64,000 nucleotides of DNA. Source: an uncultured Thiotrichales bacterium (lineage in GTDB: Bacteria > Pseudomonadota > Gammaproteobacteria > UBA4575). The stretch is taken from NCBI GenBank assembly GCA_964486815.1, contig CAZAOO010000013.1:9965-73964 (forward strand), given 5' to 3'. The notes under the pieces are model-generated. The model was not told the DNA's origin. It saw only the letters and a program-made list of their open reading frames with translations, and searched no databases. The position numbers were made by a program, and so were the translations under genes. Below are positions 8,454 through 62,498 of the stretch, piece by piece (the stretch's first letter is position 1; every line of letters begins with the position of its first letter).

Positions 8454-8484
8454 CTAGCGTCAAAATTCAGAGTAAGTAACAGCT

Positions 8485-37095: not shown

Positions 37096-38205
37096 CTAAA
37101 GAGTGCTATGTAGAACTACTTTGTTTCGACCATCTTGCTTGGCTTGATAAAGCGCTTTATCTGCTCGGCGTAGTAACTCGCGTCCAAGATCGAAAGTATT
37201 TTGATTGGTGTTTGGCTGTTCAATGGTGGAAACACCTATGGAAACCGTTAAGTTGCAATCTTCGCCTTTCACAAAAGTCGTTTCTGCGATACTTTGCTGG
37301 ATTCGCTCAGCTACTTCTTCCGCCCAGTCTTGTCCAGATTGCTCTAATAGCACTGCAAATTCTTCACCACCGTAGCGTGCAACAACATCAATATTTCTTA
37401 ACTGTGCTCGAATTAACTCTGCGACTTTAGTTAGTACTTTGTCTCCTGTTTCATGCCCAAAGCTGTCGTTGACTACTTTAAAGTGATCGATGTCGATAAA
37501 TAAACAGCTTACAGATGATTGCAGGCGTTGTGCGCGAGATATTTCTTCGTTGAGGCGCTGGTCAAAGAATCTGCGATTATTAACACCGGTTAATGAATCG
37601 GTTAGTCCTGCTTGTTTGAGTTTTTCTTGTGCCATGGTGGTATCTAGGCAGGTAGCTAAAACAGCTGCTAGATGTTCAAGAAAATCAGTCGCATCCTGCT
37701 TATTAAATCTTCCGGACTGAAAGCTGCCCAGATTAAGGCTGCCGAGTAATTTATTTTTACGAAATAGTGGTAATAATGCCACACTGTGGGGGAACTTTCG
37801 GTCCGTTAAAAATAGATCTTCATGCAAGTTTATATTAAAAGAACCAAGTAGAGGTTTTTTGAATCGCCCATAAAACTTTTTAAGCTTTAAGATATCATTT
37901 GTAAATATAAGCTCTGGATAGCGACTAGTGTCTTCACCAACATCACGCAATAATCGTTTTATATCTTCATGTTCGTCATGCAAGATTATTGTTAATACAT
38001 CCCAACCAAATGTAGATTTACTTTTATGTGCAACAAGTTGCATTAATTCTGCAAGAGAGCTGCAGCTAAGTAATCTTAATTCTAGATTTTGAAATTTTCG
38101 TAAAGTGGTTTCATTCCTGCGCGCATCATGCACCAGCGACTGTAATTTGTTGCGCAGTGCTTCTACTTCAGTAAGTTCTTCTTCAATGTGGGGTGCGGTA
38201 GGCAT
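37096..38205 (-). CDS. diguanylate cyclase with N-terminal GAF/DUF484-like sensor domain
   Basis: 369 aa. Intact GGEEF site. …DSLTGVNNRRFF… … RYGGEEFAVLL. Confidence 0.8.
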   Translation of the reverse strand: MPTAPHIEEELTEVEALRNKLQSLVHDARRNETTLRKFQNLELRLLSCSSLAELMQLVAHKSKSTFGWDVLTIILHDEHEDIKRLLRDVGEDTSRYPELIFTNDILKLKKFYGRFKKPLLGSFNINLHEDLFLTDRKFPHSVALLPLFRKNKLLGSLNLGSFQSGRFNKQDATDFLEHLAAVLATCLDTTMAQEKLKQAGLTDSLTGVNNRRFFDQRLNEEISRAQRLQSSVSCLFIDIDHFKVVNDSFGHETGDKVLTKVAELIRAQLRNIDVVARYGGEEFAVLLEQSGQDWAEEVAERIQQSIAETTFVKGEDCNLTVSIGVSTIEQPNTNQNTFDLGRELLRRADKALYQAKQDGRNKVVLHSTL

Positions 38206-38206
38206 G

Positions 38207-44402: not shown

Positions 44403-45395
44403 ATGAGTTTTCTTTTGGTTGATAAACGTTTAAAAATACAAAGTCTGTCATTTCAGGATGCAGTGGAAACGCTGCAACAAGATGTTATTACAGGTCTTGT
44501 TGAAGGTCCACGCAGTCTCCCTCCAAAGTATTTTTATGATGATGAAGGTTCCAGGCTTTTTGATGAAATATGTAAAACTCAAGACTATTACCCAACAAGA
44601 ACAGAATCAGCTTTATTGAATAAACATGCGGCTGAAATTATTGCATTAGTAAAGCCTGAAATTTGCACTGAATTAGGTGCAGGAACCTCTACAAAAACGG
44701 AAATATTATTATCTAAATTGTGCGTCAATGCAGAAACATTTATCTATCAAAATATTGATGTTTGCGAGGAGGTGTTAATTGAGACTGCTGATCGATTGCT
44801 CAAAAAATACAATAATTTACACATTGAATCTGTAGTAGGAGAATATATTCCGGCAATACAGATAGCGCCCAAGCATCCAGGTACAACGCTTTATGTGTTT
44901 ATCGGTAGTTCGATAGGAAATTTTTCTGAGCAAGAATCAGTAGAGCTGCTTTCTGAAGTGGCGAATATAATGGATTCGGAGGATTATTTTTTGATTGGTT
45001 TGGATCGGGTAAAAGATCAAGCAGTCCTTGAGCGAGCCTATAACGATTGCGATGGCGTAACAGCAAAATTTAATTTGAATGTTCTAAATGTGTTAAATGA
45101 TAAATTGTCGGCAAATTTCAGGCTAGAAAAATTTTCACATAGGGCTTTATATAATGAACAACAACAACAAATAGAAATGTATTTAATCTCTGATTGTGAT
45201 CAAGAGATAGATTTTCCTACACTAGGTAAAAAAATTAGCTTGGAAGAGGGTGAAAAAATCCTAACGGAAGTGAGTCGCAAATATACTAGGTCGTCTATAA
45301 ATAGGTTGCTTAAGAAAAGTGGCTTGCAAGAAGCGGTTCACTTTGAGCCTGTAAATGAATATTTTTCTTTGCTATTGGCTAAAAAGTTACAGTAG
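44403..45395 (+). CDS. EgtD-family L-histidine N-alpha-methyltransferase-like protein (Methyltransf_33)
   Basis: 330 aa. SLPPKYFYDDEGSRLFDEICKTQDYYPTRTESALL…ELGAGTSTKT closely parallels the EgtD N-terminal substrate-binding region. Confidence 0.7.
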   Translation: MSFLLVDKRLKIQSLSFQDAVETLQQDVITGLVEGPRSLPPKYFYDDEGSRLFDEICKTQDYYPTRTESALLNKHAAEIIALVKPEICTELGAGTSTKTEILLSKLCVNAETFIYQNIDVCEEVLIETADRLLKKYNNLHIESVVGEYIPAIQIAPKHPGTTLYVFIGSSIGNFSEQESVELLSEVANIMDSEDYFLIGLDRVKDQAVLERAYNDCDGVTAKFNLNVLNVLNDKLSANFRLEKFSHRALYNEQQQQIEMYLISDCDQEIDFPTLGKKISLEEGEKILTEVSRKYTRSSINRLLKKSGLQEAVHFEPVNEYFSLLLAKKLQ

Positions 45396-47721: not shown

Positions 47722-48315
47722 TTAGAAAAACAGTCCTGCATTCCCTCCATGCCCCCAAGCAACCATGCACGCTAACATTGGAATGGATAGTAAAGTGTTA
47801 GTACGTGAAGCAATGAAGGCTATTTTCTTGGCCTTGGCTTTTTCATCGTCACTGGCCTGTTTAATGCCCAGCACCTTCTTTTGATTAGGCCAAATCAAAC
47901 CCCATACATTAAGCAGCATGATGGTACCCAACCAAGCGCCTACACTCATTACCGTAATACCGTCGGTTGCAAAGAAATGGGTTGAAAAGCCACCTATATA
48001 CATAAGTGCTGCCGCTCCTGTTAACCAGGTAGCAAGCGCCCCCCAGCGAAACCATGCGAGTGCACGGGGCGCAACATATTTACCAATCGCTGCAGGTCCG
48101 GGCCCACTGCTGTCGGCAGCAGCTTCGCCCAGTGCTGGGACTTGTACAAAGTTAAAGTAATATAGGAGTCCAATCCAAGTAGTGCCTGATAATACATGCA
48201 ACCACACTACTAGTGACCACGAATTAATTGCATTCGGATCAAAAAACAATGCAATGGCAATTGCTAAAATAAAACCCGCAATGATCGTGCCGAGTATAGA
48301 ATTTAAAGGATTCAT
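47722..48315 (-). CDS. hypothetical inner-membrane protein (4-5 TM)
   Basis: 197-aa hydrophobic ORF. No catalytic motif recognised. Confidence 0.45.
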   Translation of the reverse strand: MNPLNSILGTIIAGFILAIAIALFFDPNAINSWSLVVWLHVLSGTTWIGLLYYFNFVQVPALGEAAADSSGPGPAAIGKYVAPRALAWFRWGALATWLTGAAALMYIGGFSTHFFATDGITVMSVGAWLGTIMLLNVWGLIWPNQKKVLGIKQASDDEKAKAKKIAFIASRTNTLLSIPMLACMVAWGHGGNAGLFF

Positions 48316-48935
48316 TAGGTGCGCCTCTCTAGACTGAAAAATAGTTATTGTTTTAATAGAAAATTTTGAACAAGCAGTTTTAGCTTATTCTTAAATTTAA
48401 ACGGATTATAGCTAACCTGAGCAACAAACATAACTGCTAATTTTATACTTTTAGCTGCATGAATCATTTGTGAAATCATGCATTTATGCCAAATCTACAC
48501 CGTTGTTAGCTGTTGCTAAAAAACATCTCTAGCTGGTTATTGGTTATATATTAGCAAATTCCATAGCTATGGAATTAAAGATTTTTTGTGTCTTAAATTA
48601 ATGATTTTATATGCACAAATATTTTTATAGTAATTTAACTTTAAATATAGTTTTTATGGAAATTTAGATCCCAAAATACCATATACCTTATGATAAATGA
48701 GGTTTTTTAAAAGCATATAGCATCCTTGCTTGATGCCTAGAGAGTGAAAGTCACTACTATAATTTTACTTACTTTAAGTGAAAATGCCGTAATCTGAATA
48801 TGAATAACCATTTAATTTTTGCGATTGTGACTCTATTCATAACAAATATTTGCTTCTCAAGTTATAAGCTGAGGTGGAAAGAGCTAGTATTAAAACAAGT
48901 TAAACGATGTATTTAAAATAAAGTAATAAATAGTT

Positions 48936-50192
48936 ATGAATGCGCATTCAGTACTAAGGCTAATCCCAGATTATTTTGCGACAGACATAAAGCACTTTGC
49001 GAAAAAATATTATCGGAAACCAACTATTAAACTTGCGCAATTAAAGCGTAAGAAATTGAGTCATGTACAGTTTATTGGAATAACAGGCAGTTCTGGCAAA
49101 ACTACAACTAAAGAGCTAGCGCACTCAATTTTATCGAGAAAATTTGAAACCTGTAAGAGTGATGACACTAATAATCAAGTGTATTCAGTTGCACGTACAC
49201 TTTTAAGTTTAAATAGTGAGACAATAGTTTGCGTGCATGAGCTTGGTATTTCGCAAAATGAAGATTTTTCGCATTCCGTAAAGTTGTTAAGTCCAAAAAT
49301 TGGCGTCGTATTGAATATTGGTCAAGAGCATTACAAAGCTTTCCGTGGTCGAGAGCATGTTGCATTGGAAAAATCTAAACTTATCAATAATCTTCCTGAT
49401 GATGGCGTTGCAATTTTAAATGTGGACGATGTTCTATCTATTGGTATGGGGCAGTCTATAAATTGTAAAATATTTACTTTTGGTTGCAATCAAGAATGTG
49501 ATCTTCGAGCAATAAATGTTCGTAGTATTTGGCCTAATCGATTGCAGATGACGCTAAAATATAAAAATGAAACCGTTGATTGTAATACTCAACTTTGTGG
49601 TGAGTATTTAGTGTACTGCGTTTTGGCAGCAGTAGCCATTGGGTTAGTGCATGGAATATCTTTGAAAGAGGCTGCTTTATCCGTTCAATCTTTTCAGCCA
49701 TTTTTAGCGAGGATGATGCCGTATGAAACTTCATCTGGAATAATATTTATACGGGATGATTGGAAGGCGCCATACTGGTCTATCCAAGAGTCAATTAATT
49801 TTATTAAAAACGCAAAGGCTAAACGCAAAATAATAATAATAGGTACATTGTCTGATTTTAATGGTACGAGAAGTACTAAATATCGTAATGTTAGTAAAAA
49901 AGCTTTAGATGCTGCCGATTTTGTATTCTTTGTTGGCCCTAATGCCAATAAAGGTGTGCGTATAAAAGACGTACCAGAAAATAAATCTTTGCGAGCATTC
50001 TCAAGTACCAGGGAATTGTCTGTTCACTTAAAATCTTTGTTATCTAAAGGTGATCTAGTGCTTTTGAAGGGTTCTGGTAGTGATCATTTGGCTCGGTTAG
50101 CGTTAATGTATGAGAAAGATGTTAAGTGTTGGCGTGAAAGATGTGGTCGCAGTAATTTATGTGATAACTGCAAATTGCTGTCCATATCCTAA
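48936..50192 (+). CDS. Mur-ligase-family protein (MurF-like central + C-terminal domains only; C-terminal Cys4 cluster)
   Basis: 418 aa. P-loop QFIGITGSSGKTTTKEL. MurF-like …HELGISQNEDFSHSVKLLSPKIGVVLNIGQEHYKAF…. No UDP-binding N-domain. C-terminus CWRERCGRSNLCDNC. Confidence 0.7.
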   Translation: MNAHSVLRLIPDYFATDIKHFAKKYYRKPTIKLAQLKRKKLSHVQFIGITGSSGKTTTKELAHSILSRKFETCKSDDTNNQVYSVARTLLSLNSETIVCVHELGISQNEDFSHSVKLLSPKIGVVLNIGQEHYKAFRGREHVALEKSKLINNLPDDGVAILNVDDVLSIGMGQSINCKIFTFGCNQECDLRAINVRSIWPNRLQMTLKYKNETVDCNTQLCGEYLVYCVLAAVAIGLVHGISLKEAALSVQSFQPFLARMMPYETSSGIIFIRDDWKAPYWSIQESINFIKNAKAKRKIIIIGTLSDFNGTRSTKYRNVSKKALDAADFVFFVGPNANKGVRIKDVPENKSLRAFSSTRELSVHLKSLLSKGDLVLLKGSGSDHLARLALMYEKDVKCWRERCGRSNLCDNCKLLSIS

Positions 50193-50195
50193 GAA

Positions 50196-50924
50196 TTGAA
50201 AACAATGAATATGAAATCCAAACGCTCTATGGTTAAACGTATACGAGAGCGATTCCGTTATGGGTTAGCGCTGCAAGAAGTGATCGATGTTTTGCAGCGA
50301 AGATTTAATATTTTGGTATACCCATACTATATTGTTTCCGAAACCTTGAATGAGAATTACGTGCCTAATTATGAGGATGTGCCACCTTTTAGTATTCGAT
50401 ATCTTAAAATAATTGATATGGAATCAGTTGTGAAAATTAGGCCATGGATGTCTACTCTTGCTAAGCTTCAGTCAGATATACAACTATATAACTGTCTAGG
50501 GATTATTGTTAATGATCAGTTGGCTGGAACAACTTGGAGTCGTGATGACGTGATCCCTGTTCCTAATAGCGGGCAACCATTGGTGGAGTTAGGTTCAGAT
50601 GAGGCGTATTTATTTGACGCATTTGTTGGGCGAGAGTTTCGAGGCTATCGGCTTGCACCTATTGTGCGGCATCAACTTTATTGCGAACTTGTGAAAATAG
50701 GGAAAACTCAGTTTTACAGTATCACGCTTGCCTTTAATAAATCATCGCGTCGGTTTAAAGCAAGACTGGGTGCTAGAGAAATAGAATTAAGGTTAATGGT
50801 AGGTATTGCAGGGTGGAGAGCAATAGATTTTCGATTGACTGCCAAAAATAATAATAAACTTACACCTAGATATAAGTTGCTGAAGCTTAAGAAAAAAATC
50901 ATAACGGCGCAAGATAAGGAATGA
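50196..50924 (+). CDS. GNAT-fold acyltransferase-like protein
   Basis: 242 aa. R-x-x-G-x-G/A-type CoA loop (REFRGYRLA). Confidence 0.4.
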   Translation: MKTMNMKSKRSMVKRIRERFRYGLALQEVIDVLQRRFNILVYPYYIVSETLNENYVPNYEDVPPFSIRYLKIIDMESVVKIRPWMSTLAKLQSDIQLYNCLGIIVNDQLAGTTWSRDDVIPVPNSGQPLVELGSDEAYLFDAFVGREFRGYRLAPIVRHQLYCELVKIGKTQFYSITLAFNKSSRRFKARLGAREIELRLMVGIAGWRAIDFRLTAKNNNKLTPRYKLLKLKKKIITAQDKE

Positions 50925-52096
50925 ATATTCTTATTTTAAACTATGAATTCCCTCCTGTAGGTGGTGGGGCAAGTTCCGCTAGTTATAATTTAGCAAAGCA
51001 GTTCGTAAAAGCGGGGCACAGTGTCGACGTGCTTACTTGCCGTGTTTCTGGGCAATCTAAGGTTGAGAATATTGAGGGAGTTATTGTTTATCGTGTATTA
51101 AGTATTAGAAAAGGCACTCATGAAGCAGGATTGTTAGGAGCGTTCTCGTATTTGGTAGCGGCTTTTTTAAAATTAAGGAAATTAATAAAATTAAAAAAAT
51201 ATCAATATGCAATATTCTTTTTTGCAGTACCAACTGGGCTTTTGTCATTATATTGGCATAAAAAAACAAACTCACCTTATATAATTTGTTTGCGTGGCTC
51301 AGATGTTCCCAGGTATGACCAAGATGCAAAATTAGTAAATTTTATTCACAGCAGTATTTATCCAATAACTAATCGAATATTGAAAAATGCTCACAAGGTG
51401 ATTGCAAATAGTTTGAGTTTGCGCTCTCTTGCCTTAAGCTCATTCCCCGATATACCTATTTCTGTCATTACGAATGGCGTTTCACATACAACATACAAGC
51501 CAAGTTCTTATGTGAATATTAATAATGAAGTTATCAATGCACTTTGCGTTGCCCGTTTGGTGAGACGGAAAGGTATAAATTTAATTTTGCATGCTCTTGA
51601 GCGCACTAATATACAAAATTTGCATATATGGGTTGTTGGTTCTGGCCCTGATGAGGAAAAATTACTACAACTTGCTAAGCAGCTGGGTGTCCAAGAGCGC
51701 GTTAAATTTATTGGGCAAGAGTTATCTGAGCAGTTAGCAGAATATTATGCAAAAGCAGATTTTCTTATTCATGCTGCATTAACTGAGTCATTTAGTATGA
51801 CGTTGTTAGAGGCCATGGCCAGTGGTTTGCCGATTATTGCAAGTGATGTTGGGGGTATTCCAGAGCTGGTGGAGGATAATATTAATGGAATTCTATTTCC
51901 TCCTAGTAATATCGATGCATTAAGTTCAGCAATTGTCACGATGTGTGAGCAAACCCAATTGCGTTTAAAGTTTTCTGAAAATAATCGAATGAAAATACTA
52001 GATAAGTACACATGGGAGCAGATAAGCACTCAATATTTAGAAAATTGCACAATTGATTCTAACAATAGTGATGAATATAGTTGTAATACTTGGTAA
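50921..52096 (+). CDS. glycosyltransferase family 4
   Basis: 391 aa. N-terminus ILNYEFPPVGGGASSASYNLAKQF. C-terminal GT-B EX7E region (…ESFSMTLLEAMASGLPIIASDVGG…). Confidence 0.8.
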   Translation: MNILILNYEFPPVGGGASSASYNLAKQFVKAGHSVDVLTCRVSGQSKVENIEGVIVYRVLSIRKGTHEAGLLGAFSYLVAAFLKLRKLIKLKKYQYAIFFFAVPTGLLSLYWHKKTNSPYIICLRGSDVPRYDQDAKLVNFIHSSIYPITNRILKNAHKVIANSLSLRSLALSSFPDIPISVITNGVSHTTYKPSSYVNINNEVINALCVARLVRRKGINLILHALERTNIQNLHIWVVGSGPDEEKLLQLAKQLGVQERVKFIGQELSEQLAEYYAKADFLIHAALTESFSMTLLEAMASGLPIIASDVGGIPELVEDNINGILFPPSNIDALSSAIVTMCEQTQLRLKFSENNRMKILDKYTWEQISTQYLENCTIDSNNSDEYSCNTW

Positions 52097-53376
52097 TGAA
52101 GTTAGGGAGCACACTCAAGGTTGGGATTAAGTTAGCAAGTCTGTCTCGTAGTCAATGGTGGGATTATCGTAAAATTAATCATTATCAAGAAAAAAAACTG
52201 ACAAGCATGCTTCGTTATGCGGTTACACATGTTCCTTATTATTCTTCATTAAATATCAGCCCAGAATCTATTACTTCTGTTGATGACTTGAAGCGTTTTC
52301 CTGTCTTAAAAAAATCTATGGTCCAAGACTTTGGCGATGATTTGATATCAAATCGCTATGCTAGAAATGACTTGCTTTTCTCTAGAACGTCAGGAAGTAC
52401 TGGCGAACCAACAACGACTTACTTCGATGAGGATTGCTGGCTAACAACTAAATACGCTCTGAAAATAAGAAGGATGGTTGCTAACCAGGTGGGTGCGTTT
52501 AAGCATGTGATCATCATTAGTGAATTAAATAATGACGAAATACATAATTCTCAATCTTTAGCTTTTGCGAATGTGTTTTTTAAGAAAACTATGTTATCCA
52601 TTCATCAGCCTATTCAAGAGCATTTGCCGTATTTAATTGAAAATAAGGTAGATGCTATATATGGCTTCCCATCTTATTTTGATGAATTGATGCATTACTG
52701 CGATGCAAATAGTATTAAGCTTTCACCAATTCCAATTATTTTCACTAGTTCAGAAGTATTGCGTTCAACGCTAAGGGAAAAGATTAAGAGATATTTTGGT
52801 GCACAGGTATGTGATATTTATGGCAGCACAGAATTTAAGGAAATAGCTTGGCAATGTTCTGAAGGGAACTATCATTTAAATTTTGAATCAATTTGGATTG
52901 AAAATCATTATGTAGATAATGATGTAAATAACCATCGTACTTTACAAACAAGTTTGCTTAATAAGGCTATGCCACTTATACGTTATGAGATTGGTGACTT
53001 TGGTAAGCTTGAAAGAATATTTTGTAAATGTGGAAGGCAGTCACCAGTACTAGAGTCAATTTCAGGACGTGAAATTGATATAATTCAGTTACCTGACGAT
53101 AGAAGAATTTCTCCTTATCTTCTTACTACGGTGATCGAAGCTAATGATGTAATCAGCATGTATCAAATCATACAGGTAGAAAATGATCAGTTAGAGATTA
53201 TTTATGTAACCAACAATAGCAAAATGCAAAATGAATATAGTTTTGAATCAACTATTGAGAAATTGAAGTATATCACTGGCTCATCTGTGGCAATCGATTT
53301 CCGTGAAGTTGATTGTATAGATCGTGCATTTTCAGGCAAGCATAAAATTTTCATTAAAGCATCTAAAGAAGGTTGA
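52090..53376 (+). CDS. CapK / phenylacetate-CoA-ligase-like adenylate-forming enzyme
   Basis: 428 aa. AMP-binding motif SRTSGSTGEPTTTYF. PaaK/F390-synthetase-like architecture. Confidence 0.7.
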   Translation: MVMKLGSTLKVGIKLASLSRSQWWDYRKINHYQEKKLTSMLRYAVTHVPYYSSLNISPESITSVDDLKRFPVLKKSMVQDFGDDLISNRYARNDLLFSRTSGSTGEPTTTYFDEDCWLTTKYALKIRRMVANQVGAFKHVIIISELNNDEIHNSQSLAFANVFFKKTMLSIHQPIQEHLPYLIENKVDAIYGFPSYFDELMHYCDANSIKLSPIPIIFTSSEVLRSTLREKIKRYFGAQVCDIYGSTEFKEIAWQCSEGNYHLNFESIWIENHYVDNDVNNHRTLQTSLLNKAMPLIRYEIGDFGKLERIFCKCGRQSPVLESISGREIDIIQLPDDRRISPYLLTTVIEANDVISMYQIIQVENDQLEIIYVTNNSKMQNEYSFESTIEKLKYITGSSVAIDFREVDCIDRAFSGKHKIFIKASKEG

Positions 53377-54506
53377 GTTTGGCGTCATTTACTTGTGAAG
53401 TCATTGAAACAATTAAAGACATTGCTCCTAAAGAGTGGGATAAAGTTGTTGGAGATTCAATAGCAATTCGACATTCAATACTGAATTGTTATGAGGCTAG
53501 CAGTATCTATAAAAATAATCATAGATATTTTTTGTTATTTGATGAAGAAAAAAATTTGCAGGCCGTTGCAGTAACATTATTGGTTAATAATAAGTTTGAC
53601 TTAGGATACGAAAATCTCATCCTAGGAAGACTTACGAAGACAGCACCTATTTTGCGAAACTGTTTTCGGCCTGTGTTGATATGCGGCCTGATTCGAGGTC
53701 CAGGTGCACCGATTGTTGTTTGTTCTAAAATTGAACAAGCTAAATGGGAGTCGATTATATTGGATGCGATGGAAGAATACTCAAGCCTACATAAGTTATC
53801 CATAGCATTTTCTAATTTACTAAATGAGCAGGAAAATCTTTTTAAGGAATTAAAAGAACGTAGCTATTACCATGCGCTATGTGCACCGGAAGCAATAATT
53901 AAAATCACTTGGAAAGATCAAGAGTCTTATCTGAAATATTTACGAAGTATAAGTAAAAATTACCATAAGTGCGCAAAAAAAGAGATTGCTCGATTTCGTA
54001 AATCAGGCATGACGATAACAGAATGGGATGGTAGAAATGAGCGATCGATCTACAATCTATTAAAAGATCATCATTACAGGAAAAATAGTTATAAGTATGA
54101 TCTGCCGTCAAACTTTCTTTCTATATTAAGAAGTGAAACAAATGAATTTTTCTGCATATATGTGGCGAAAAAGGAATCTAAAATAGTCGGTGTGTTCATT
54201 GTATTAATAGGTGAAAAAGTAGCAATTAGTTGGAAAATTGGAATTGATCATGATTTAGATGAGGGTGGCCGCAGCTACTTTAATTTAAACTTTTATAATT
54301 TTTTAATTCAGGCTCCAGCTTTAAATATAGAAAAAATATATTATGGAAATGGTGTACTAAATGCGAAAAAACGTAGAGGGTGTGAAATTGAATTTACACA
54401 TTTTTTCTATAAGCCTAAGAATTTCTTATGGGTGCCTATTGTAAGAATATTGTTTTTAATTCAAAAAATATGGTACCAGAGAAAATTTTTACCCTACACC
54501 TTTTAG
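53373..54506 (+). CDS. FemAB-like (Acetyltransf_6 / BioF2-like GNAT) aminoacyl-transferase-type protein, paralog 1
   Basis: 377 aa. Conserved …YHKCAKKEIARFRKSGMTITEWDG… and …GNGVLNAKKRRGCE… blocks shared with the next gene. Confidence 0.6.
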   Translation: MSLASFTCEVIETIKDIAPKEWDKVVGDSIAIRHSILNCYEASSIYKNNHRYFLLFDEEKNLQAVAVTLLVNNKFDLGYENLILGRLTKTAPILRNCFRPVLICGLIRGPGAPIVVCSKIEQAKWESIILDAMEEYSSLHKLSIAFSNLLNEQENLFKELKERSYYHALCAPEAIIKITWKDQESYLKYLRSISKNYHKCAKKEIARFRKSGMTITEWDGRNERSIYNLLKDHHYRKNSYKYDLPSNFLSILRSETNEFFCIYVAKKESKIVGVFIVLIGEKVAISWKIGIDHDLDEGGRSYFNLNFYNFLIQAPALNIEKIYYGNGVLNAKKRRGCEIEFTHFFYKPKNFLWVPIVRILFLIQKIWYQRKFLPYTF

Positions 54507-54510
54507 CTTT

Positions 54511-55650
54511 ATGAGTATGAAAACTTATTATTCTGAAGTTATCAGGTCAATAGGTGAGGTTGGCTCCATGGAATGGAATCAAGTTATTGATGAAGCAGTA
54601 TCTATTAGTCATGAAGTGTTTGAGTTTGCAGAATGTAATTCAACATATGGTGACAAAGTGCGATATTTTTTACTACGAGACAAAAACCAATGCCTAAGTG
54701 CGGTTTCAATCGCGCTATGTATAGATAAGGAATCAGAGTTTGGTGTAGAGGGTGTGATGTTTGGGCGATTGGTTGAGCGAGTAAGGTTTCTTAATAATAG
54801 TTTGCGCCCAGCATTAATTTGTGGATTGGTTGGCCATGGCGCCCCTGTGATGACATGGCCTGGTGAAAATCAAGCGTTTTGGGTTGAACGTGTTTTAGAT
54901 GTTATGGAGATATATGCAAAAGAGCATAAATATTCAATTGGATTTGCAGGGATTTTGTCTGAACAAAAAACATTAAACAATGCGTTAGAGCGGCGAGGTT
55001 ATTGTCATGCTTATGGATTGCCGGAGACAAAAATTAAAGTCGAATGGCATGATGAAGATTTCTATCTTAAAAGTATTCGAAACATAAATAAAAATTATTA
55101 TAAGTGTGCGAAGAAGGAAATTAATAGATTTCGAAAATCAGGTATTTCAATACAGAAATGGAATGGAAATAATGCGCAAGCAGTATCTAATTTGTTGAAG
55201 GATCATCATAATGAGAGGAATAAATTAAAGTCTGAAATTACTCCAGAAAGCTTGTTAGATCTTAAGTTTAAACTTAAAGATAATTGCCAGATATATCTGG
55301 CTATAAAAGAGGAAGAAATAATAGGGGTAGCTGTATTATTAAAGAAAGGCAGTACTGCTAGAGCATGGAAGATAGGAGTTGATCATATTGCTGATGAAAA
55401 TAGTTTTACCTATTTTAATTTAGCCTATTACCATTTATTGAGTAATGCGCCGAAATTTAATTTAAAAACTGTTTGGTATGGTAATGCAGCTCTGAATGCA
55501 AAAATCAGGAGAGGTTGCAAGGTGGATTGCACGGATTTTTACTATAAGCCTAAAGAAATGCATTGGAAACTGATCTTCTATATTTTATTTGCGTTACAGC
55601 GCTATTGGTATCACAAGAAGTTCTCTTCTTACTTAAATAGTACCGTGTAA
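54511..55650 (+). CDS. FemAB-like (Acetyltransf_6) protein, paralog 2
   Basis: 379 aa. Collinear similarity to 53373-54506 (…YYKCAKKEINRFRKSGISIQKWNG…, …GNAALNAKIRRGCK…). Confidence 0.6.
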   Translation: MSMKTYYSEVIRSIGEVGSMEWNQVIDEAVSISHEVFEFAECNSTYGDKVRYFLLRDKNQCLSAVSIALCIDKESEFGVEGVMFGRLVERVRFLNNSLRPALICGLVGHGAPVMTWPGENQAFWVERVLDVMEIYAKEHKYSIGFAGILSEQKTLNNALERRGYCHAYGLPETKIKVEWHDEDFYLKSIRNINKNYYKCAKKEINRFRKSGISIQKWNGNNAQAVSNLLKDHHNERNKLKSEITPESLLDLKFKLKDNCQIYLAIKEEEIIGVAVLLKKGSTARAWKIGVDHIADENSFTYFNLAYYHLLSNAPKFNLKTVWYGNAALNAKIRRGCKVDCTDFYYKPKEMHWKLIFYILFALQRYWYHKKFSSYLNSTV

Positions 55651-55673
55651 CTAGATCATCAAAACAATAAATT

Positions 55674-56825
55674 GTGAAAATTTTACTCACTAGTTGTACT
55701 TTAAATTCTTCTTTATTGGTACTGCGTACATTGGTGCGAAATGGGCACGAAGTTATAGCGGCAGATGACCGTTTACTACCTTTTGGATTGCATAGTAGAT
55801 TCGTTTCGCGCTATGAGCTTTTGCCTAATTGGCGTGAGTCAAATTATGGTGACGAACTTTTGCGTTTAGTTGAGGGGTGTCGGCCTGATGTAGTATTGCC
55901 GATTTCGGGTGCGGAAATTGTTAGTAGAGATCTCGATAAATTCAAACTATTAACAAATGCTCAAGTTCCAGATTATGATTCCTTTGTTGCTGTAAATGAC
56001 AAAAAAAATATATTAAAACAATGTAGAAAATTTTCAATTCCTCATTCATTGCTAATAGATGGCATAGATCTCGCTAAGGAAAAATTATTAAACAATGATG
56101 TTGTAGCAGTTGTTATTAAGCCGTGTGAGAATTTTGGTGGGGGAGTAGGTATACAAATAGTTTCAAATGCTAAGGAGGTGTACAAAATATATCATGATGT
56201 TGAAGAGAGCTTTGGTGAATGTTTTATCTGCGAATATGTGCCTGGTCCTGATGCAAATAATTATTCCATGCAAATGGTATTTGATAGTAATAATAAACCA
56301 ATTTGCCAATTTGCATTTCAAAAATTACGTATAAGCCCATTGAGAACTGGGGTGACCGCCGTCGCGATCAGTAGAAAAATTCCAGAACTAGTAGAATTAG
56401 TGATGCCTATGCTGAAACAGCTTAAATGGCGAGGGCCATTGGATTTTGATCTTAAAATGGATTCGAGAGATTTGCGGTTAAAAGTTATTGAGGTGAACGC
56501 GAGGTTTTCTGGTGCAGTAGGATTCGCGCTTGGTTGTGGAATCGATATGCCAGAATTAACTTGCCAGGCCGCAATGGGAAATAGAATTGTTCCATTGGAT
56601 GAAAATAATTATGTTGAAGATGTGAAGTATTGGAACCCACAGCAATATATTCGTAGTGTATTTCAAGAGTGGCACGAAAGTTCGCATCGAATTTCAACAC
56701 TTCGAGGAGCGATAAAGGAAATTAAGAAGCCGCGCGTTGGGAGCCCCTATGATTTAACTGACCCTGCACCGCTTTTGGGGAAAGTGTTGCATCAAATAAA
56801 AAACAAGGTTGCAAAGAGTAATTGA
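55674..56825 (+). CDS. ATP-grasp family ligase
   Basis: 383 aa. Pre-ATP-grasp Rossmann region. ATP-grasp core (…VVIKPCENFGGGVGIQIV…, …LKVIEVNARFSG…). Confidence 0.65.
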   Translation: MKILLTSCTLNSSLLVLRTLVRNGHEVIAADDRLLPFGLHSRFVSRYELLPNWRESNYGDELLRLVEGCRPDVVLPISGAEIVSRDLDKFKLLTNAQVPDYDSFVAVNDKKNILKQCRKFSIPHSLLIDGIDLAKEKLLNNDVVAVVIKPCENFGGGVGIQIVSNAKEVYKIYHDVEESFGECFICEYVPGPDANNYSMQMVFDSNNKPICQFAFQKLRISPLRTGVTAVAISRKIPELVELVMPMLKQLKWRGPLDFDLKMDSRDLRLKVIEVNARFSGAVGFALGCGIDMPELTCQAAMGNRIVPLDENNYVEDVKYWNPQQYIRSVFQEWHESSHRISTLRGAIKEIKKPRVGSPYDLTDPAPLLGKVLHQIKNKVAKSN

Positions 56826-56832
56826 GTAAATT

Positions 56833-58263
56833 ATGGAAATAGAACGTAGAATTTTCCGTAATACATTCGTTATGACAGTTGGGCAAGGTATTGTGCAATT
56901 GGTTAATCTATGTTTTGTGATCTATTTTGCTCGTGTATTTGGTGCAGGCACATTAGGTGATTACTCTTTTGCTATGGCGATAGGGGCTTTATGCAGTATT
57001 TTTGTAAGTTTGGGGACTCATTCTTTAGCAATAAAGAGTATTAGTCAGGATATAGCTACAGAGATTAAAATAATAGGTTCATTAATACCATTTGAGATAA
57101 TTACTGGGTCAATTATTTTTATATCAGTTTTTGTGTTTTTAGAGTTTGTGCCAATAGGTAATAGATTATACGCGATGATACTTCTGATACTCGCGTACAA
57201 TATAATTATCAAATGGACAGATTTATTGTGTACGCGTTTTCAGGCGCGTGAAAAAATGGGTTATGTTGCATACGCAGATGTAATTAGGCAAATCTTACGA
57301 GTAACGTTTGGGTTTCTTCTGATATGGCAGTTAAATGATCCTGTTGCGGCTATTGGTGTTTTCCCGGTTTGCGCGTTGTTTGTATTAATATGGATGATGT
57401 ATGCAACTACAAAGCAATATGGCGCAATGCCATTGAGTATTAACTTGAGAGCTTTTAAAGAGCTTGTTATTAAAGCCTGGCCCTATGGTTCGTTGATATT
57501 GATGGGAATTCTATATGAGCGTTTGGGGATCATTTTTTTAACTTTCATGCACTCTGAAGTAACAGTTGGCTACTTTACTATGGCAGAAAGATTGGTTGTA
57601 GCGTTGGGAATCATCCATGCAATGTTTATTAGCTCGATATTTCCTGCGATGACGAGGTTGGTTGCGCATGAGAAAAAAATCATGCCGGTACTAGCGGTTC
57701 GTTGTTTGCGATTAGTGCTTGTTTTTGTTTTGCCTGCTGCATCTTTATTGTTTTTATTAAGTGATGAAGTTATTGCGGTTCTTTATGGAGATGAATTTGA
57801 TCAATCTGTAATTATTTTACAAATTGTATCTTGGGTACTTGTATTCAGAGGTCTAAATTCTTATTTGTCTATGTTAGCTATTGCTGAGGACAATCAATCG
57901 TATTTATCAAAAATTAAATTTTCTGCGCTTTTGTTTTTTGTTGTTATTTCAGTGCCTCTAGTATATCTGGAGAGTGCAGAGGGTTTGTCATACTCAATAT
58001 TGCTTTCAGAGATATTTTTAAGTGCTCTATTGTTGTTGTTGTTCAGGAAAGCTTCTTATTTCTTAGGGTTGATAGCTATAATGTGGAGGACGCTTCTAGT
58101 TTGTGTGGTACTAATTGCTGTAGGAATGACTTTTATAGAGCAGCCATTATTTTACCGGCTTGTAATTTTGTCTGTAACACTTGTGGTAGCAATGATATCA
58201 ATGGGCGCTATTAAATATCATGACTTGAGGTTTTTGAGAGATATATTATTTGATAGTAAATAA
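56833..58263 (+). CDS. MOP-superfamily oligosaccharide/lipid-linked precursor flippase (Wzx-like)
   Basis: 476 aa, about 12-14 TM. Polysacc_synt-type N-terminus. Confidence 0.7.
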   Translation: MEIERRIFRNTFVMTVGQGIVQLVNLCFVIYFARVFGAGTLGDYSFAMAIGALCSIFVSLGTHSLAIKSISQDIATEIKIIGSLIPFEIITGSIIFISVFVFLEFVPIGNRLYAMILLILAYNIIIKWTDLLCTRFQAREKMGYVAYADVIRQILRVTFGFLLIWQLNDPVAAIGVFPVCALFVLIWMMYATTKQYGAMPLSINLRAFKELVIKAWPYGSLILMGILYERLGIIFLTFMHSEVTVGYFTMAERLVVALGIIHAMFISSIFPAMTRLVAHEKKIMPVLAVRCLRLVLVFVLPAASLLFLLSDEVIAVLYGDEFDQSVIILQIVSWVLVFRGLNSYLSMLAIAEDNQSYLSKIKFSALLFFVVISVPLVYLESAEGLSYSILLSEIFLSALLLLLFRKASYFLGLIAIMWRTLLVCVVLIAVGMTFIEQPLFYRLVILSVTLVVAMISMGAIKYHDLRFLRDILFDSK

Positions 58264-58278
58264 TACTGATCAGATGAG

Positions 58279-59265
58279 CTAAATTACTTCAGATCTATTG
58301 ATTAAATCGCTTAATTTTGTCATTGCATATAAGTTCTTTAAGTGTGGCACATCGACATTAGTCATTTCTGCTAATTCAATTACAGCGCCTAGAGTGGCCT
58401 CAAGTTCTAAAGTTTGTTTTGACTCAAAGTCTTGTAACATAGAAGTTCTGTGCTCGCCAATTTTTTCAGCGCCACGAAGCCTCTGTTCAAGTGGAACACG
58501 GAGCTTAATATCTAACTTAGCTGCAACTTGTTGTGATTCCTTCATAAGATTTATTACGATTTCTCTTGATTCTCTGCATTTGCAAATCTGCGACATTGTC
58601 GCCTTAGTTAAAGTGCTAACTGGATTAAATGCTAGTGTGCCCCAAGCTTTTAACCATATTTCATTACGTATGTCACTTAAAATGGGCGATTTGAAACCAG
58701 CATCGGATAATAAGCTTGAAACGATTTTTGCTCGATTAGATATTGTTCCATCTAATTCCCCGATAGGAAATCTAATGCCTTCAATATGCTGAATAACACC
58801 AGGGGCTATAATCTCAGCTGCTGGGTAGGATACGCAGCCAATAATATATTTACCTGAAATGTAGTTAGTGATAGTGCGGTCAGGATCAACTGTTTTTAGT
58901 GTGCGATTGTTAAATTTACCGTTATATTGCTGGAAAAACCACCATGGAATTCCATTTTGCAACGTAACAAGCGTTGTGTTTTCATGTATTAGCCTAGGTA
59001 TTTGTTTGCATACTGATTGGATTTGGTGTGCTTTAAGAGCTAAAAAAATAATATCTTGTGGACCACAACTTGAAAGATTTGTAGTGGGAGTCAAGTCGGT
59101 TATGGTAGATGTTTCTCCATTTGGTTTTTTAAATATCAGCCCATGTTTTTTGATTGCCTCTAAGTGTGGGCCTCTGTCGAAAACGGTTATTGTATTTTTA
59201 TTTCTTATTAAATGAGCAGCTATCAAACCACCTATTGAGCCGCAACCTATGATGCAAATATTCAT
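58279..59265 (-). CDS. 2-dehydropantoate 2-reductase (ApbA/PanE) family NAD(P)H oxidoreductase
   Basis: 328 aa. Rossmann N-terminus MNICIIGCGSIGGLIAAHL. Only minus-strand gene in the cassette. Confidence 0.7.
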   Translation of the reverse strand: MNICIIGCGSIGGLIAAHLIRNKNTITVFDRGPHLEAIKKHGLIFKKPNGETSTITDLTPTTNLSSCGPQDIIFLALKAHQIQSVCKQIPRLIHENTTLVTLQNGIPWWFFQQYNGKFNNRTLKTVDPDRTITNYISGKYIIGCVSYPAAEIIAPGVIQHIEGIRFPIGELDGTISNRAKIVSSLLSDAGFKSPILSDIRNEIWLKAWGTLAFNPVSTLTKATMSQICKCRESREIVINLMKESQQVAAKLDIKLRVPLEQRLRGAEKIGEHRTSMLQDFESKQTLELEATLGAVIELAEMTNVDVPHLKNLYAMTKLSDLINRSEVI

Positions 59266-59393
59266 AATAGTAGTGATTTATAAATTTATATAAATAATAA
59301 TAAGCGTAATTGTGGTTTACCGATATATTGTATCAATAGCGTAATTAAATAATGTCTACTGGATCAAGTAATTGTTTTACATGACTAAATCTT

Positions 59394-60689
59394 GTGTGGC
59401 CGCTTAAAAAAAATAAATATACTTACCTCGTAATGTTGATGCAAAACGAGAAGAAGTCTCGTGAGGAAATTCTTGCATCTCAGTTAGCGAGTTTAAACAG
59501 CATTGTGCGCTATGCATACGAAAATGTTCCGTTTTACAGAGATCTTTATGATGAGGTGGGTGTTAAGCCTTCTGATATCCAGTCATTATCCGATTTAAAT
59601 TGTCTTCCAACTGTAAGTAAATCAGATTTTAAAAAAAACGATGTAACTGATTATTTAGATAAAAATAATAGTGACATTTCAAGCTTGCATTTGATTGCGA
59701 CATCTGGATCTAGTGGCAAGCCCATGAGTTTTTTTATAAATAACGACTATGACCAATTTCGTAAAGCACAATCTATTAGGCCGTATTTATCAAATGGAAG
59801 AAAACTAACAGATCATGTGATGAGGTTTAGCGAAAGATCGGATGTCCAGCAGATGTGGTTTCAAAAAATAGGATTGCTTCGAGAATCATTTGTATTAGCT
59901 AATTCAGATTTAAGCACACAAGTTGAAAATTTTATAAAGCTGAAACCAGATATAATACAGGGATATGGCTCTGAGCTTATGCTACTCGCTAAAGAAATCC
60001 TTAATAAGGGTTTAAGCATACAAAGCCCTAAGATAGTTTTCACAGATTCAGAGCTGTTGACCCCTGATTCACGCGAATTGATTAAAACTGCATTTTCATC
60101 CGACGTAATTGATGTATATGGAACCTATGAGACAGACAATATTGCATATGAATGCTCCGAACATGCTGGATACCATATAGCAGAAGACTGTGTGGTTATG
60201 GAGTTTTTAAATGAATCGATGCAAGCTGTGCAACCTGAATGTGATGGTGAGATTGTTCTGACTGTTCTAAATAATTATACAATGCCGCTCATAAGATATA
60301 GGGTAGGCGATGTTGGTAGTTTTACGCTTGATTCTTGTAGATGTGGCCGATCTTTTCCGCTAATGAACCAAGTAGTTGGTCGTCTAAATGATTTCGCAGT
60401 AACTGATAGGGGTGTGTTTAAATCTACTTTAGGGCTTATGTCTAAGTTTAAATATTTAGCTGAAAAAGTGGCTGAGTATCAAATTCACCAAAAAGACATT
60501 AACAAATTTGATGTATATGTTGTTTCTTATGGTGAGCTCACCGTAAGAACTGCTGATGAATTTAAATTAGTATTGCTCTCTGAGTTTCCAAGTGCCAATG
60601 TAGTGGTTAAATCTGTAGATAATATTGAGCGTACTGCAGCCGGCAAATTTAAAGCATTTGTACAACATTACGTTGCGAATCCCAGCTAA
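59394..60689 (+). CDS. CapK / phenylacetate-CoA-ligase-like adenylate-forming enzyme, second copy
   Basis: 431 aa. IATSGSSGKPMSFF AMP-binding motif. Similar to 52090-53376. Confidence 0.7.
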   Translation: MWPLKKNKYTYLVMLMQNEKKSREEILASQLASLNSIVRYAYENVPFYRDLYDEVGVKPSDIQSLSDLNCLPTVSKSDFKKNDVTDYLDKNNSDISSLHLIATSGSSGKPMSFFINNDYDQFRKAQSIRPYLSNGRKLTDHVMRFSERSDVQQMWFQKIGLLRESFVLANSDLSTQVENFIKLKPDIIQGYGSELMLLAKEILNKGLSIQSPKIVFTDSELLTPDSRELIKTAFSSDVIDVYGTYETDNIAYECSEHAGYHIAEDCVVMEFLNESMQAVQPECDGEIVLTVLNNYTMPLIRYRVGDVGSFTLDSCRCGRSFPLMNQVVGRLNDFAVTDRGVFKSTLGLMSKFKYLAEKVAEYQIHQKDINKFDVYVVSYGELTVRTADEFKLVLLSEFPSANVVVKSVDNIERTAAGKFKAFVQHYVANPS

Positions 60690-60710
60690 CCTTCTAAGAA
60701 CAAAAAAATT

Positions 60711-62498
60711 ATGTGTGGCATATGCGGTGAATTTCGGTTTGATGGTAGTGAAGTAGAGCTGCAAACGTTGCAACGCATGCTTATACCGCTGCAAAGTCGT
60801 GGGCCCGACAACGAAGGTGTGTATCAATCAAAGATGATTGGTTTGGGGCACCGTAGACTCTCGATTATTGATTTATCTGATAACGCAAATCAACCGATGG
60901 TAGATACTGATACTCATCTGACAATCGTTTTTAATGGCACGATTTATAACTATCCGCAATTGCGAGAACAACTTATTCTAAAAGGCCATCATTTTAAATC
61001 AACGGGAGATACCGAAGTTATTCTAAAAGCATTTGCGCAATGGGGTAAAGACTGTGTAGCAAGATTGATTGGTATGTTTGCGTTTGCAATTTGGGATGAT
61101 ACCAGGCAACAGTTATTTTTAGCGCGTGATCGTTTAGGTATAAAACCGCTTTACTATAGTCAAATCAAAAAACATTTTCGTTTTGCGTCCAACACGCAAT
61201 CGTTACTTGCGGCGGGTGATGTGGATACGGAGTTCGATGCAATCGGTCTGCATCATCATTTAACCTTGCATGCTGTTGTGCCGGCTCCAACGACCATACT
61301 AAAAGGCATACGTAAAGTTCCACCCGCGCATTACATGTTAATAAATAAGCACGGCAAAGTATTAACCGAGAGGTATTGGAAACTTGATGCCGATAACATT
61401 GATAATCAACGTGATGATAAAGAATGGCTGCATGATATTCATGCTGCATTAAGTCTGGCGGTTGAACGAAGACTTAATATCGCCGATGTTCCAGTAGGTG
61501 TATTGCTCTCGGGTGGGCTGGATTCTAGTTTGTTGGTTGGCTTATTAGCAGAATCAGGCGTGTCTAATATACAAACCTACTCGGTAGGTTTTGAGGATCA
61601 ACCAGAAGAACAAGGTAATGAGTTCGAGTACTCTGATGCTGTGGTAGATAAATTCTCAACGCAACATCATAAATTCTATATTCAAAATCACGAGGTGATA
61701 CAAAGGCTTCCGCAAGCGATTGAACATATGGCTGAGCCCATGGTGGGACAGGATGCAGTAGCGTTTTATTTGCTCGCTGAACAAGTCAGCAAGCATATTT
61801 CTGTCGTGCAATCAGGTCAAGGTGCGGATGAAGTGTTTGGCGGTTATTTCTGGTATCCGTTAATGCAAGCAGAAAATAATTTTTCTGTAGAAAGTTTTGC
61901 CAAACATTACTTTGATCGTACTCATGCAGAAATGTCGGAAACATTGCATCCGGATTTAATCTCTGAAGATTTCACTTCTAGAAAAATTGCACAACTACTT
62001 GAAGAAGCCAATACAAAAAACTTTCTAGATGCAGTATTGCATATGGATGTCACGACTTTAATTGTAGATGATCCCGTTAAACGTGTAGATAACATGACCA
62101 TGGCTTATGGATTGGAAGCGCGAGTACCTTTCCTGGACCATGAATTGGTGGAACTAGCTATGCGTGCACCGACGAAATATAAGACTAAAGACGGCGGCAA
62201 GTTTCTATTAAAAAATATCGCACGGGGATTGTTGCCAGATAAAGTGATTGATCGTAAGAAAGGTTATTTTCCTGTGCCTGCTTTGAAATATGTGCGTGGC
62301 GAGTTTTTGGATTTTATGTGTGAAGTGTTGAGTTCTGAAGCATGCAAGCAACGTGGTTTATTTCAGGCTGAATATATTCACAAATTATTAAGCAAACCTG
62401 AAGCATTTATGACTCCATTGCGGGGTAGTAAGCTATGGCATTTAGCCTCATTGGAATTGTGGTTACAGCGCAATGTGGATACAGCTATTGCCACTTAA
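60711..62498 (+). CDS. asparagine synthase (glutamine-hydrolysing)-family amidotransferase
   Basis: 595 aa. N-terminal nucleophile MCGICG. PP-loop SGGLDSS. Confidence 0.8.
   Translation: MCGICGEFRFDGSEVELQTLQRMLIPLQSRGPDNEGVYQSKMIGLGHRRLSIIDLSDNANQPMVDTDTHLTIVFNGTIYNYPQLREQLILKGHHFKSTGDTEVILKAFAQWGKDCVARLIGMFAFAIWDDTRQQLFLARDRLGIKPLYYSQIKKHFRFASNTQSLLAAGDVDTEFDAIGLHHHLTLHAVVPAPTTILKGIRKVPPAHYMLINKHGKVLTERYWKLDADNIDNQRDDKEWLHDIHAALSLAVERRLNIADVPVGVLLSGGLDSSLLVGLLAESGVSNIQTYSVGFEDQPEEQGNEFEYSDAVVDKFSTQHHKFYIQNHEVIQRLPQAIEHMAEPMVGQDAVAFYLLAEQVSKHISVVQSGQGADEVFGGYFWYPLMQAENNFSVESFAKHYFDRTHAEMSETLHPDLISEDFTSRKIAQLLEEANTKNFLDAVLHMDVTTLIVDDPVKRVDNMTMAYGLEARVPFLDHELVELAMRAPTKYKTKDGGKFLLKNIARGLLPDKVIDRKKGYFPVPALKYVRGEFLDFMCEVLSSEACKQRGLFQAEYIHKLLSKPEAFMTPLRGSKLWHLASLELWLQRNVDTAIAT

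Follow-up and report, generated by a model that had tools for sequence, protein, structure and literature searches.

A recurrent cassette of amide-forming enzymes, a GT4 glycosyltransferase and a Wzx-like flippase as a candidate pathway to a lipid-linked glycopeptide

We analyzed a 64,000-nucleotide stretch of DNA from an uncultured Thiotrichales bacterium (assembly GCA_964486815.1, contig CAZAOO010000013.1, positions 9,965 to 73,964; hereafter the window) and found that a block near its 3′ end is one copy of a self-contained, horizontally spread gene cassette. Eleven open reading frames (ORFs, g1–g11) occupy window positions 48936–62498, as an earlier note made from the sequence had placed them, and encode a MurF-like ligase (g1), a GNAT-family acyltransferase (g2), a GT4 glycosyltransferase (g3), two PaaK/CapK-type ligases (g4, CapK1; g10, CapK2), two Fem-like proteins (g5, Fem1; g6, Fem2), an ATP-grasp ligase (g7), a Wzx-like flippase (g8), a PanE-type reductase (g9) and an AsnB-type amidotransferase (g11). 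The cassette thus combines four amide-forming chemistries around one glycosyltransferase and one flippase. From these gene families and their genomic contexts, we tentatively favor a pathway in which the cassette assembles, on polyprenyl phosphate at the cytoplasmic face, a sugar that bears amino acids or a short peptide, after which Wzx would flip the unit. The earlier note had read the enzyme logic in the same way, as leading to amino-acid decoration of a sugar or lipid-linked carrier, and our analysis upholds that logic; it had also called the product plausibly undescribed, and we found no characterized product, no curated family and no paper describing this gene combination. Amino-acid-bearing sugars are handles that fasten proteins or polymers to some bacterial surfaces, and few of their enzymes are known. 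The cassette is conserved in very different bacteria and is apparently unstudied.

A cassette conserved at one site and across distant bacteria

The same gene set recurs in at least ten loci (numbered here with the prefix L) from organisms with 35–68% GC content, the unrelated bacteria among them having 53–68%, and this recurrence supports the earlier suggestion that the genes act as one unit. The canonical set spans 10–12 kb and comprises ten genes: GT4, CapK1, AsnB, Mur-like, GNAT, Fem, ATP-grasp, CapK2, Wzx and PanE. L094 (GC 0.53) keeps the order of the window, with Mur, GNAT, GT4, CapK1, Fem, ATP-grasp, CapK2, Wzx and a minus-strand PanE, and L100–L102 (GC 0.67) carry all ten genes in the order GT4, CapK1, AsnB, Mur, GNAT, Fem, ATP-grasp, CapK2, Wzx and PanE, again with PanE on the minus strand. 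In L100–L102 the cassette is bordered by an IS21 pair on one side and unrelated genes on the other; in L101 this IS21-type pair (IstB and an integrase-core protein, 1638–3859) directly adjoins the ten-gene cassette, an arrangement consistent with horizontal transfer. Four further loci, L092, L004, L108 and L010, hold 7–9 of the canonical genes, and the carriers include Gemmatimonadales. In a metagenome scan seeded with an eight-sequence GNAT alignment, cassette genes adjoin the g2-type GNAT in every locus with usable flanking sequence (17/17), and this GNAT is dedicated to this type of cassette.

Comparison with related genomes shows the block at a conserved site. The L003/L088 copy lies between the same Urate_ox_N-like gene and grxD as in the window, with flanking proteins 64–89% and cassette proteins 54–78% identical to those of the window. 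Its order is Mur, GNAT, GT4, CapK1, Fem1, Fem2, ATP-grasp, Wzx, PanE (minus strand), a 629-amino-acid (aa) AsnB, CapK2, Fem3 (minus strand), a 595-aa AsnB and grxD, and a third genome, L089, has the same layout with the 629-aa AsnB fragmented into a pseudogene (9187–9927). The block is therefore not an island specific to one strain, a possibility that the earlier note had raised, since two related genomes carry it at this position. Two genes of L088, the 629-aa AsnB (8005–9894) and Fem3 (11208–12371, minus strand), are absent from the window, Fem3 being a third Fem-like gene that both relatives possess. These two absences, together with the fragmented AsnB of L089, show that the 3′ part of the block is decaying in this lineage and that the window no longer possesses the AsnB proper to the cassette.

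A second cassette type occurs in organisms of 30–47% GC and carries a BKACE enzyme instead of Mur, PanE and ATP-grasp. In this type, represented by L090, L091, L133 and L134, and also by L115–L136, a g2-related GNAT is found with one to three CapK genes and either one or two Fem-like genes. The order in L133/L134 is GT4, CapK, BKACE, GNAT, Fem, Fem, CapK and CapK, and L090/L091 are variants that contain GT2. A flippase follows in both L090 and L091, and the L133/L134 sequence ends before that position. The L090 locus has extra 80-aa and 120-aa ORFs with no assigned function.

Enzymes of the cassette

Profile searches recovered every family named in the earlier gene list, the GNAT assignment of g2 coming through its homologs. 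The adenylation motifs, the Mur P-loop and the AsnB catalytic cysteine and PP-loop are all intact. With the exception of PanE (g9) and g11, no cassette protein reaches a curated NCBIfam cutoff. Wzx (g8) is the sole cassette protein with transmembrane segments, and none is predicted in any of the enzymes.

The first gene, g1 (48936–50192, plus strand), encodes a MurF-like two-domain ATP-dependent ligase identified by Pfam, NCBIfam, alignment and an AlphaFold2 model. It matches Mur_ligase_M (115 bits) and Mur_ligase_C (40 bits) and no other Mur domain in Pfam, and its top NCBIfam model is murF (215 bits, cutoff 288.6), to which it aligns only from model position 63 on; the N-terminal uridine diphosphate (UDP)-binding domain is therefore missing. 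In the AlphaFold2 model (predicted local distance difference test, pLDDT, 89.9), one long helix formed by residues 3–39 replaces this domain, and MurF is the best fold match (template modeling score 0.80). A 24-sequence alignment of the g1 family reveals an invariant TGSxGKTT P-loop and an equally invariant C-terminal CW-x3-C-x5-CD-x-C motif (g1 residues 398–412, window 50127–50171), whose four cysteines make a possible zinc site. g1 is not a MurC–F enzyme. Forty of its 120 best homologs are fused at the C terminus to peptidyl-tRNA hydrolase (Pth; TIGR00447, 151 bits against a cutoff of 100), and the window g1 carries no such fusion. The Mur–Pth fusions at L006 (10001–11938), L008, L011 (9917–11767) and L093 (10001–11932) have an AsnB-like gene, an exosortase locus or an amino-sugar locus in their neighborhoods. 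Together, the Pth fusions and the invariant four-cysteine motif hint at chemistry beyond the MurF model.

The genomic contexts of Mur-like homologs also bear on substrates. In L013, a locus of the di-N-acetyl-uronic-acid pathway, the homolog lies between a core-type AsnB and WbpA/WbpB/WbpD-like genes, beside WecB; in L011 a Mur-like–Pth homolog lies inside an exosortase and polysaccharide-deacetylase locus; and in L093 the homolog is accompanied by FdtA, DegT, a hexapeptide transferase, a weak Acetyltransf_6 protein, BKACE and a sugar-transfer ATP-grasp (ATPgrasp_ST). Such neighborhoods suggest that the substrates are sugar carboxylates or amino sugars. The earlier note had named orthologous cassettes within characterized exopolysaccharide loci of known product as grounds against its reading, and this objection is half borne out: single Mur-like homologs do sit in exosortase and Wbp loci, but the orthologous cassette does not, and no product is known for any of those loci. 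A distant relative annotated as a "Mur ligase family protein" (28% identical) was seen at 51307–52632 of L137, the 284-kb Gemmobacter aquarius plasmid NZ_CP028919.1, next to GT25, GT4, pyruvyl-transferase and formyltransferase genes, and the plasmid collection yielded nothing beyond this protein.

The next three genes encode an acyltransferase, a glycosyltransferase and a ligase. g2 (50205–50924, plus strand) has no direct Pfam match itself and was assigned to the GNAT family through homolog profiles: 33 of 38 tested homologs match PF00583, and the PDB entries matched by a g2 profile are GNATs with few exceptions. An exhaustive HMMER search with g2 returned 444 representative homologs. g3 (50921–52096, plus strand) is a GT4 glycosyltransferase (Glycos_transf_1, 140 bits) whose one near full-length NCBIfam alignment, and its best, is to BshA (residues 11–374, 121 bits, cutoff 274); its Pfam GT4-conflict match (36 bits) is a generic GT4 cross-match. 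g4 (52096–53376, plus strand) is a PaaK/CapK-type adenylate-forming ligase that matches the NCBIfam DVU1553/PaaK families below cutoff and, weakly, the dapdiamide ligase DdaG. A Logan gene identical to g4 carries CapK_C, the SGSTGEP, YGSTE, RYEIGD and SGKHK motifs are intact, and a PDB sequence search with g4 returned PaaK-type ligases only.

g5 (53379–54506, plus strand) and its paralog g6 (54511–55650, plus strand; 43% identical) belong with the Fem-like proteins. The g5 model has a tandem-GNAT, Fem/MprF-like fold that resembles FemX and FemA and is typical of aminoacyl-tRNA-dependent transferases; it was built on a five-sequence alignment, a word-based homolog search having given just four proteins. 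Acetyltransf_6 matches of g5 and g6 are weak (E 0.015–0.03), orthologs in L003 match PF04339, and neither window protein has an NCBIfam match at E ≤ 0.01, TIGR03019 included. g7 (55674–56825, plus strand) is an ATP-grasp ligase by ATPgrasp_Ter and CPSase_L_D2, with further matches to PRK12767-type families below cutoff and a weak match to an archaeal pseudomurein ATP-grasp in NCBIfam; its PDB sequence search found one structural-genomics ATP-grasp, and those of g5 and g8 were empty. g8 (56833–58263, plus strand) is a MOP flippase with 13 hydrophobic segments that matches Polysacc_synt (93 bits) and Polysacc_synt_3, belongs to the PST (Wzx) branch and not to MATE, and weakly matches SpoVB (30 bits).

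The three remaining genes differ in how firmly they belong. g9 (58279–59265, minus strand) encodes a PanE/ApbA-type 2-oxoacid reductase (NF005089, 363 bits against a cutoff of 223), convergent with Wzx and cassette-like in its GC content at third codon positions (GC3 0.29). PanE keeps its position after Wzx in L088, L089, L094 and L100–L102, the L101 copy falls in the same NF005089 subfamily (388 bits) and L095 holds a bare PanE–Mur pair, so PanE, for which the earlier note had offered no explanation, is a true cassette member. g10 (59433–60689, plus strand), the second PaaK/CapK-type adenylate-forming ligase (NCBIfam PaaK-type models, 133–151 bits, below cutoff), has intact motifs and is 37–41% identical to the orthologous CapK2-position genes of L004, L092, L094 and L101. 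g11 (60711–62498, plus strand) is a 595-aa glutamine amidotransferase that belongs to the TIGR03104 (AsnO) type (923 bits, cutoff 570), a different protein from the canonical cassette AsnB of 629–658 aa. Its membership is doubtful and we regard it as a cassette neighbor because it is 78–80% identical to its L088 and L089 orthologs, as flank genes are, has flank-like composition (GC 41.1%, GC3 0.35, like grxD and rnt) and belongs to the AsnO family. The earlier count of seven amide-forming enzymes included this AsnB and needs correction on that point, as the cassette's own 629–658-aa AsnB is absent here and fragmented in L089.

Locus composition and flanking genes

Positions 48936–60689 have a GC content of 35.6%, against 39.2% for positions 1–48315. 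Of all 11.75-kb stretches in the window, the one that begins at 48201 has the lowest GC content (35.0%), and the minimum elsewhere is 37.1%. The AT-richer block described earlier is thus real, but the dip is modest (3.6 points) and stops at 60689, ahead of g11, so that AsnB falls outside it. g1–g8 overlap or sit at most 23 bp apart. The block does lie between argD and grxD, as had been described, with rnt also among the flanking genes, but a Urate_ox_N-like gene and a spacer separate argD from g1. The former (47722–48315) encodes a 197-aa protein, 89% identical to its L003 counterpart, whose sole match is to the N-terminal membrane domain of urate oxidase (PF06181). The latter (48316–48935) is an AT-rich, non-coding 620-bp stretch immediately upstream of g1, presumed to be the promoter region of a g1–g8 operon. 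None of its ORFs is conserved in L003, and a 38-aa hydrophobic ORF at 48800–48916, considered as a precursor peptide or leader, was rejected on that ground. A search for riboswitches or other known RNAs with Rfam found no match at E ≤ 0.1 across 47.5–63.6 kb, spacer included, and a promoter and terminator scan gave no more sites than shuffled sequence.

Two other features lie upstream in the window. An EgtD-type histidine methyltransferase gene (44403–45395; TIGR03438, 340 bits) is solitary, no EgtB lying close to it; its GC content of 0.352 is cassette-like, and it is 64% identical to its L003 ortholog versus 80–89% for its neighbors. Adjacent GGDEF and PAS-GGDEF-EAL cyclic-di-GMP genes occupy 37096–40795, about 8 kb upstream of the cassette, and the PAS-GGDEF-EAL gene is conserved in L003. 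A role in anti-phage defense was also considered for the cassette and set aside, as none of 10 proteins has a PADLOC match at E ≤ 0.001.

Proposed pathway and alternatives

Reading the observed gene set, its conservation as a unit, the folds, the intact catalytic motifs and the lack of predicted transmembrane segments in the enzymes alongside the homolog contexts, we propose the following provisional route. The GT4 enzyme would add a sugar, probably an amino or uronic-acid sugar as judged from the homolog contexts, to a polyprenyl-phosphate carrier. The MurF-like, ATP-grasp and two CapK-type enzymes would use ATP to activate carboxyl groups and form amide bonds, and the two Fem-like proteins would transfer amino acids to free amines. 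Aminoacyl-tRNA is the predicted donor for the latter, with indirect support from the Pth fusions of Mur-like homologs. GNAT may cap the terminal amine, PanE may provide a 2-hydroxy acid building block and, in the canonical form, AsnB would convert a carboxylate to a carboxamide. Wzx would then flip the finished unit to the outer face, where enzymes encoded elsewhere could join it to a final carrier such as lipopolysaccharide core, a polysaccharide, peptidoglycan or a protein. The presence of Mur-like homologs in exosortase, Wbp and amino-sugar loci favors amino-acid decoration of a lipid-linked sugar.

Several points weigh against this proposal. No initiating phosphoglycosyl transferase, polymerase, ligase or sugar-nucleotide synthesis gene lies among the eleven window genes, beside them or in the L100/L101 flanks, although such genes may lie elsewhere in the genome, and it is consequently the flippase family alone that argues for a lipid linkage; L010 holds its set with no detected flippase. 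The Fem model is of moderate quality (pLDDT 59) with a poor N-terminal third. No NCBIfam family is specific to the cassette. The distribution is sampled and not surveyed, the contig profile scan with the Mur-like alignment having been swamped by genuine MurF and having given at least seven family loci.

A bolder form of the proposal, which we consider improbable, is that the cassette is a portable, peptidoglycan-independent route to a lipid-linked glycopeptide in which a Mur-like ligase that lacks the nucleotide-binding domain is coupled with tRNA-dependent steps. The frequent fusion of this ligase family to Pth would then mean that some members join a carboxylate borne by a sugar or peptide to an aminoacyl-tRNA, through the amine of the latter, and that Pth-type hydrolysis frees the product. 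To our knowledge, no such coupling of Mur-ligase chemistry with tRNA is on record.

Chief among the rival readings is a soluble glycosylated hydroxy-acid/peptide metabolite, such as an osmolyte, low-molecular-weight thiol or antibiotic comparable to bacillithiol, N-acetylglutaminylglutamine amide (NAGGN) or dapdiamide, and we judge it unlikely. By this route PanE would make a 2-hydroxy acid, the GT4 enzyme would glycosylate it as BshA does malate, the ligases would extend its carboxylate and the MOP protein would export the product. The BshA alignment of g3 suits such a scheme, as do the conserved PanE with its bare pairing to Mur in L095, the weak DdaG match of CapK1, the AsnO-type amidotransferase next door, the prediction of no transmembrane segment in any of the enzymes, and the absence of enzymes for priming, for polymerization (Wzy) and for ligation. 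However, the BshA score of 121 is far under the cutoff of 274, the transporter falls in the PST (Wzx) branch and not in MATE, Mur-like homologs sit in polysaccharide, Wbp and amino-sugar loci, and the AsnO-type gene has no Ngg partner among window ORFs of at least 500 aa.

Alternatively, the enzymes could modify the cell's own peptidoglycan precursor, with the MurF-like, Fem-like and ATP-grasp proteins building a side branch or alternative stem on lipid II that a MurJ/SpoVB-like flippase would then handle. We find this quite doubtful. MurF is the closest match of g1 in both sequence and fold, g5 has a FemX/FemA-like fold, and the weak matches of g8 to SpoVB and of g7 to the pseudomurein ATP-grasp lean the same way, but g1 lacks the UDP-binding domain that UDP-N-acetylmuramic acid substrates require, and a cassette that is sporadic and mobile, lying beside IS21 in L101, makes this role less likely still. 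The GT4, the two CapK-type ligases and PanE moreover have no place in murein synthesis, and cassette genes diverge faster than their flanks (54–78% versus 64–89% identity).

A special case of the lipid-linked amino-acid-bearing sugar that we favor would be a "linking sugar" to whose free amino acid amine a sortase-like transpeptidase attaches proteins, as in the Wbp/Vim system of type IX secretion and as proposed for exosortase systems. Fem-like, GT4 and AsnB proteins are the enzyme types of Vim and WbpS (PMC7468200), and one Mur-like homolog lies within the exosortase locus of L011; against these stand the absence of an exosortase or other sorting enzyme from the cassette and flanks, a GNAT that would cap the acceptor amine, the missing VimE-type deacetylase and the failure of g5 and g6 to match TIGR03019, and we give this special case very little weight. 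Least credible by far is a chance neighborhood of unrelated enzymes in a low-GC stretch: PanE lies on the opposite strand, the AsnB gene proved not to belong and the GC dip is small, but these nine or ten families are found together repeatedly, and frequently in a shared order, in genomes of 35–68% GC, g1–g8 are tightly packed, and the synteny survey contradicts chance.

The cassette is compact and clonable as a unit, and its product should be a defined one. Identification of the product would give functions to several large protein families that now bear generic names, namely the MurF-like ligases that lack the N-terminal domain, their Pth fusions, the cassette GNAT and the PF04339 Fem-like proteins, and would also inform the chemistry of exosortase-type polysaccharide loci.

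Comparison with known systems

In the Wbp/Vim pathway of Porphyromonas gingivalis and Tannerella forsythia, VimA (Fem-like), WbpS (AsnB) and VimF (GT4) make a 2-N-seryl-3-N-acetylglucuronamide linking sugar: VimA places Ser or Gly on the sugar amine, WbpS makes the uronamide, and the product is a lipid-linked amino-acid-bearing sugar (PMC7468200). The Mur-like homolog and core-type AsnB in the Wbp-like locus of L013 recall this system. Unlike it, the window has no Wbp sugar-nucleotide genes (WbpA/B/D/E) and no VimE deacetylase, WbpA/B/D-like genes being found beside a Mur-like homolog in L013 only; the cassette adds MurF-like, ATP-grasp and two CapK-type ligases, GNAT and PanE, and its Fem-like proteins fall outside TIGR03019.

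Polysaccharide clusters associated with PEP-CTERM contain FemAB-related, CapK and AsnB genes (PMC3684757), and the cassette resembles PEP-CTERM/exosortase (XrtA/EpsH) loci in combining FemAB-related, CapK-type, AsnB-type, GT4 and Wzx proteins (PMC1569441, PMC3684757). It differs in lacking an exosortase, Wza, Wzc, Wzy and the PEP-CTERM machinery and in its size, 10–12 kb against 60–75 kb. No exosortase (EpsH/XrtA) matched among cassette or flank genes, the only one seen being that near the distant Mur-like homolog of L011. The family-level resemblance to PEP-CTERM proteins suggested in the earlier note did not hold: TIGR03019 has no match, g11 scores 431 with TIGR03108 against a cutoff of 817 (canonical AsnB proteins, 365–386), g3 scores 112 with stp2 against a cutoff of 409, and no cassette protein exceeds the cutoffs of TIGR03019, TIGR03108 or TIGR03088/TIGR04063. 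The cassette is not a PEP-CTERM system.

With peptidoglycan synthesis (MurC–F, Ddl, FemXAB and MurJ) and archaeal pseudomurein synthesis (PMC10117817), the cassette would share Mur-type acyl-phosphate, ATP-grasp and aminoacyl-tRNA-dependent Fem chemistries on a lipid-linked sugar, followed by a MOP flippase. Unlike peptidoglycan synthesis, it has a Mur-like ligase with no UDP-binding domain and an extra cysteine motif, no equivalents of MraY, MurG or MurA/B, a GT4 and not a GT28 glycosyltransferase, and additional CapK-type ligases, PanE and GNAT.

Decorations of O antigens and capsules use single amide bonds that join a sugar carboxylate or amine to an amino compound through ATP-grasp or AsnB-type enzymes, sometimes with N-acetylation. 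The ATP-grasp domain of Cj1438 (Cj1438C) amidates glucuronic acid in a capsule (PMC11800379), and Escherichia coli O antigens carry amide-linked glycine and alanine and N-acetyl-Gly, -Ser and -allo-Thr substituents (PMC7685785). Those decorations depend on one enzyme within a full Wzx/Wzy or ABC-transporter locus, whereas the cassette has five to seven ligases, a single glycosyltransferase and no polymerase. g8 represents Wzx, and the cassette genes include no priming glycosyltransferase, Wzy, Wzz, Wza or Wzc; the earlier conclusion that this is not a conventional capsule or O-antigen locus therefore stands, and the cassette is not a conventional Wzx/Wzy locus.

The neighboring g11 is an AsnO-family (TIGR03104) amidotransferase and recalls the AsnO–Ngg pair of NAGGN synthesis. 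Ngg, a bifunctional GNAT and ATP-grasp protein of about 590 aa, is found neither beside g11, whose neighbors are CapK2 and grxD, nor among the window ORFs of at least 500 aa, the other four of which encode a TPR protein, an MscK-like channel, a TonB receptor and a GGDEF-EAL protein. This locus does not belong to the NAGGN type. Dapdiamide synthesis (DdaG, DdaF and DdaH) follows a logic of PaaK-type ligase, ATP-grasp enzyme and AsnB-type amidotransferase. Both the NAGGN and dapdiamide pathways yield soluble dipeptides and use no glycosyltransferase or flippase, unlike the cassette, which joins its ligases to both.

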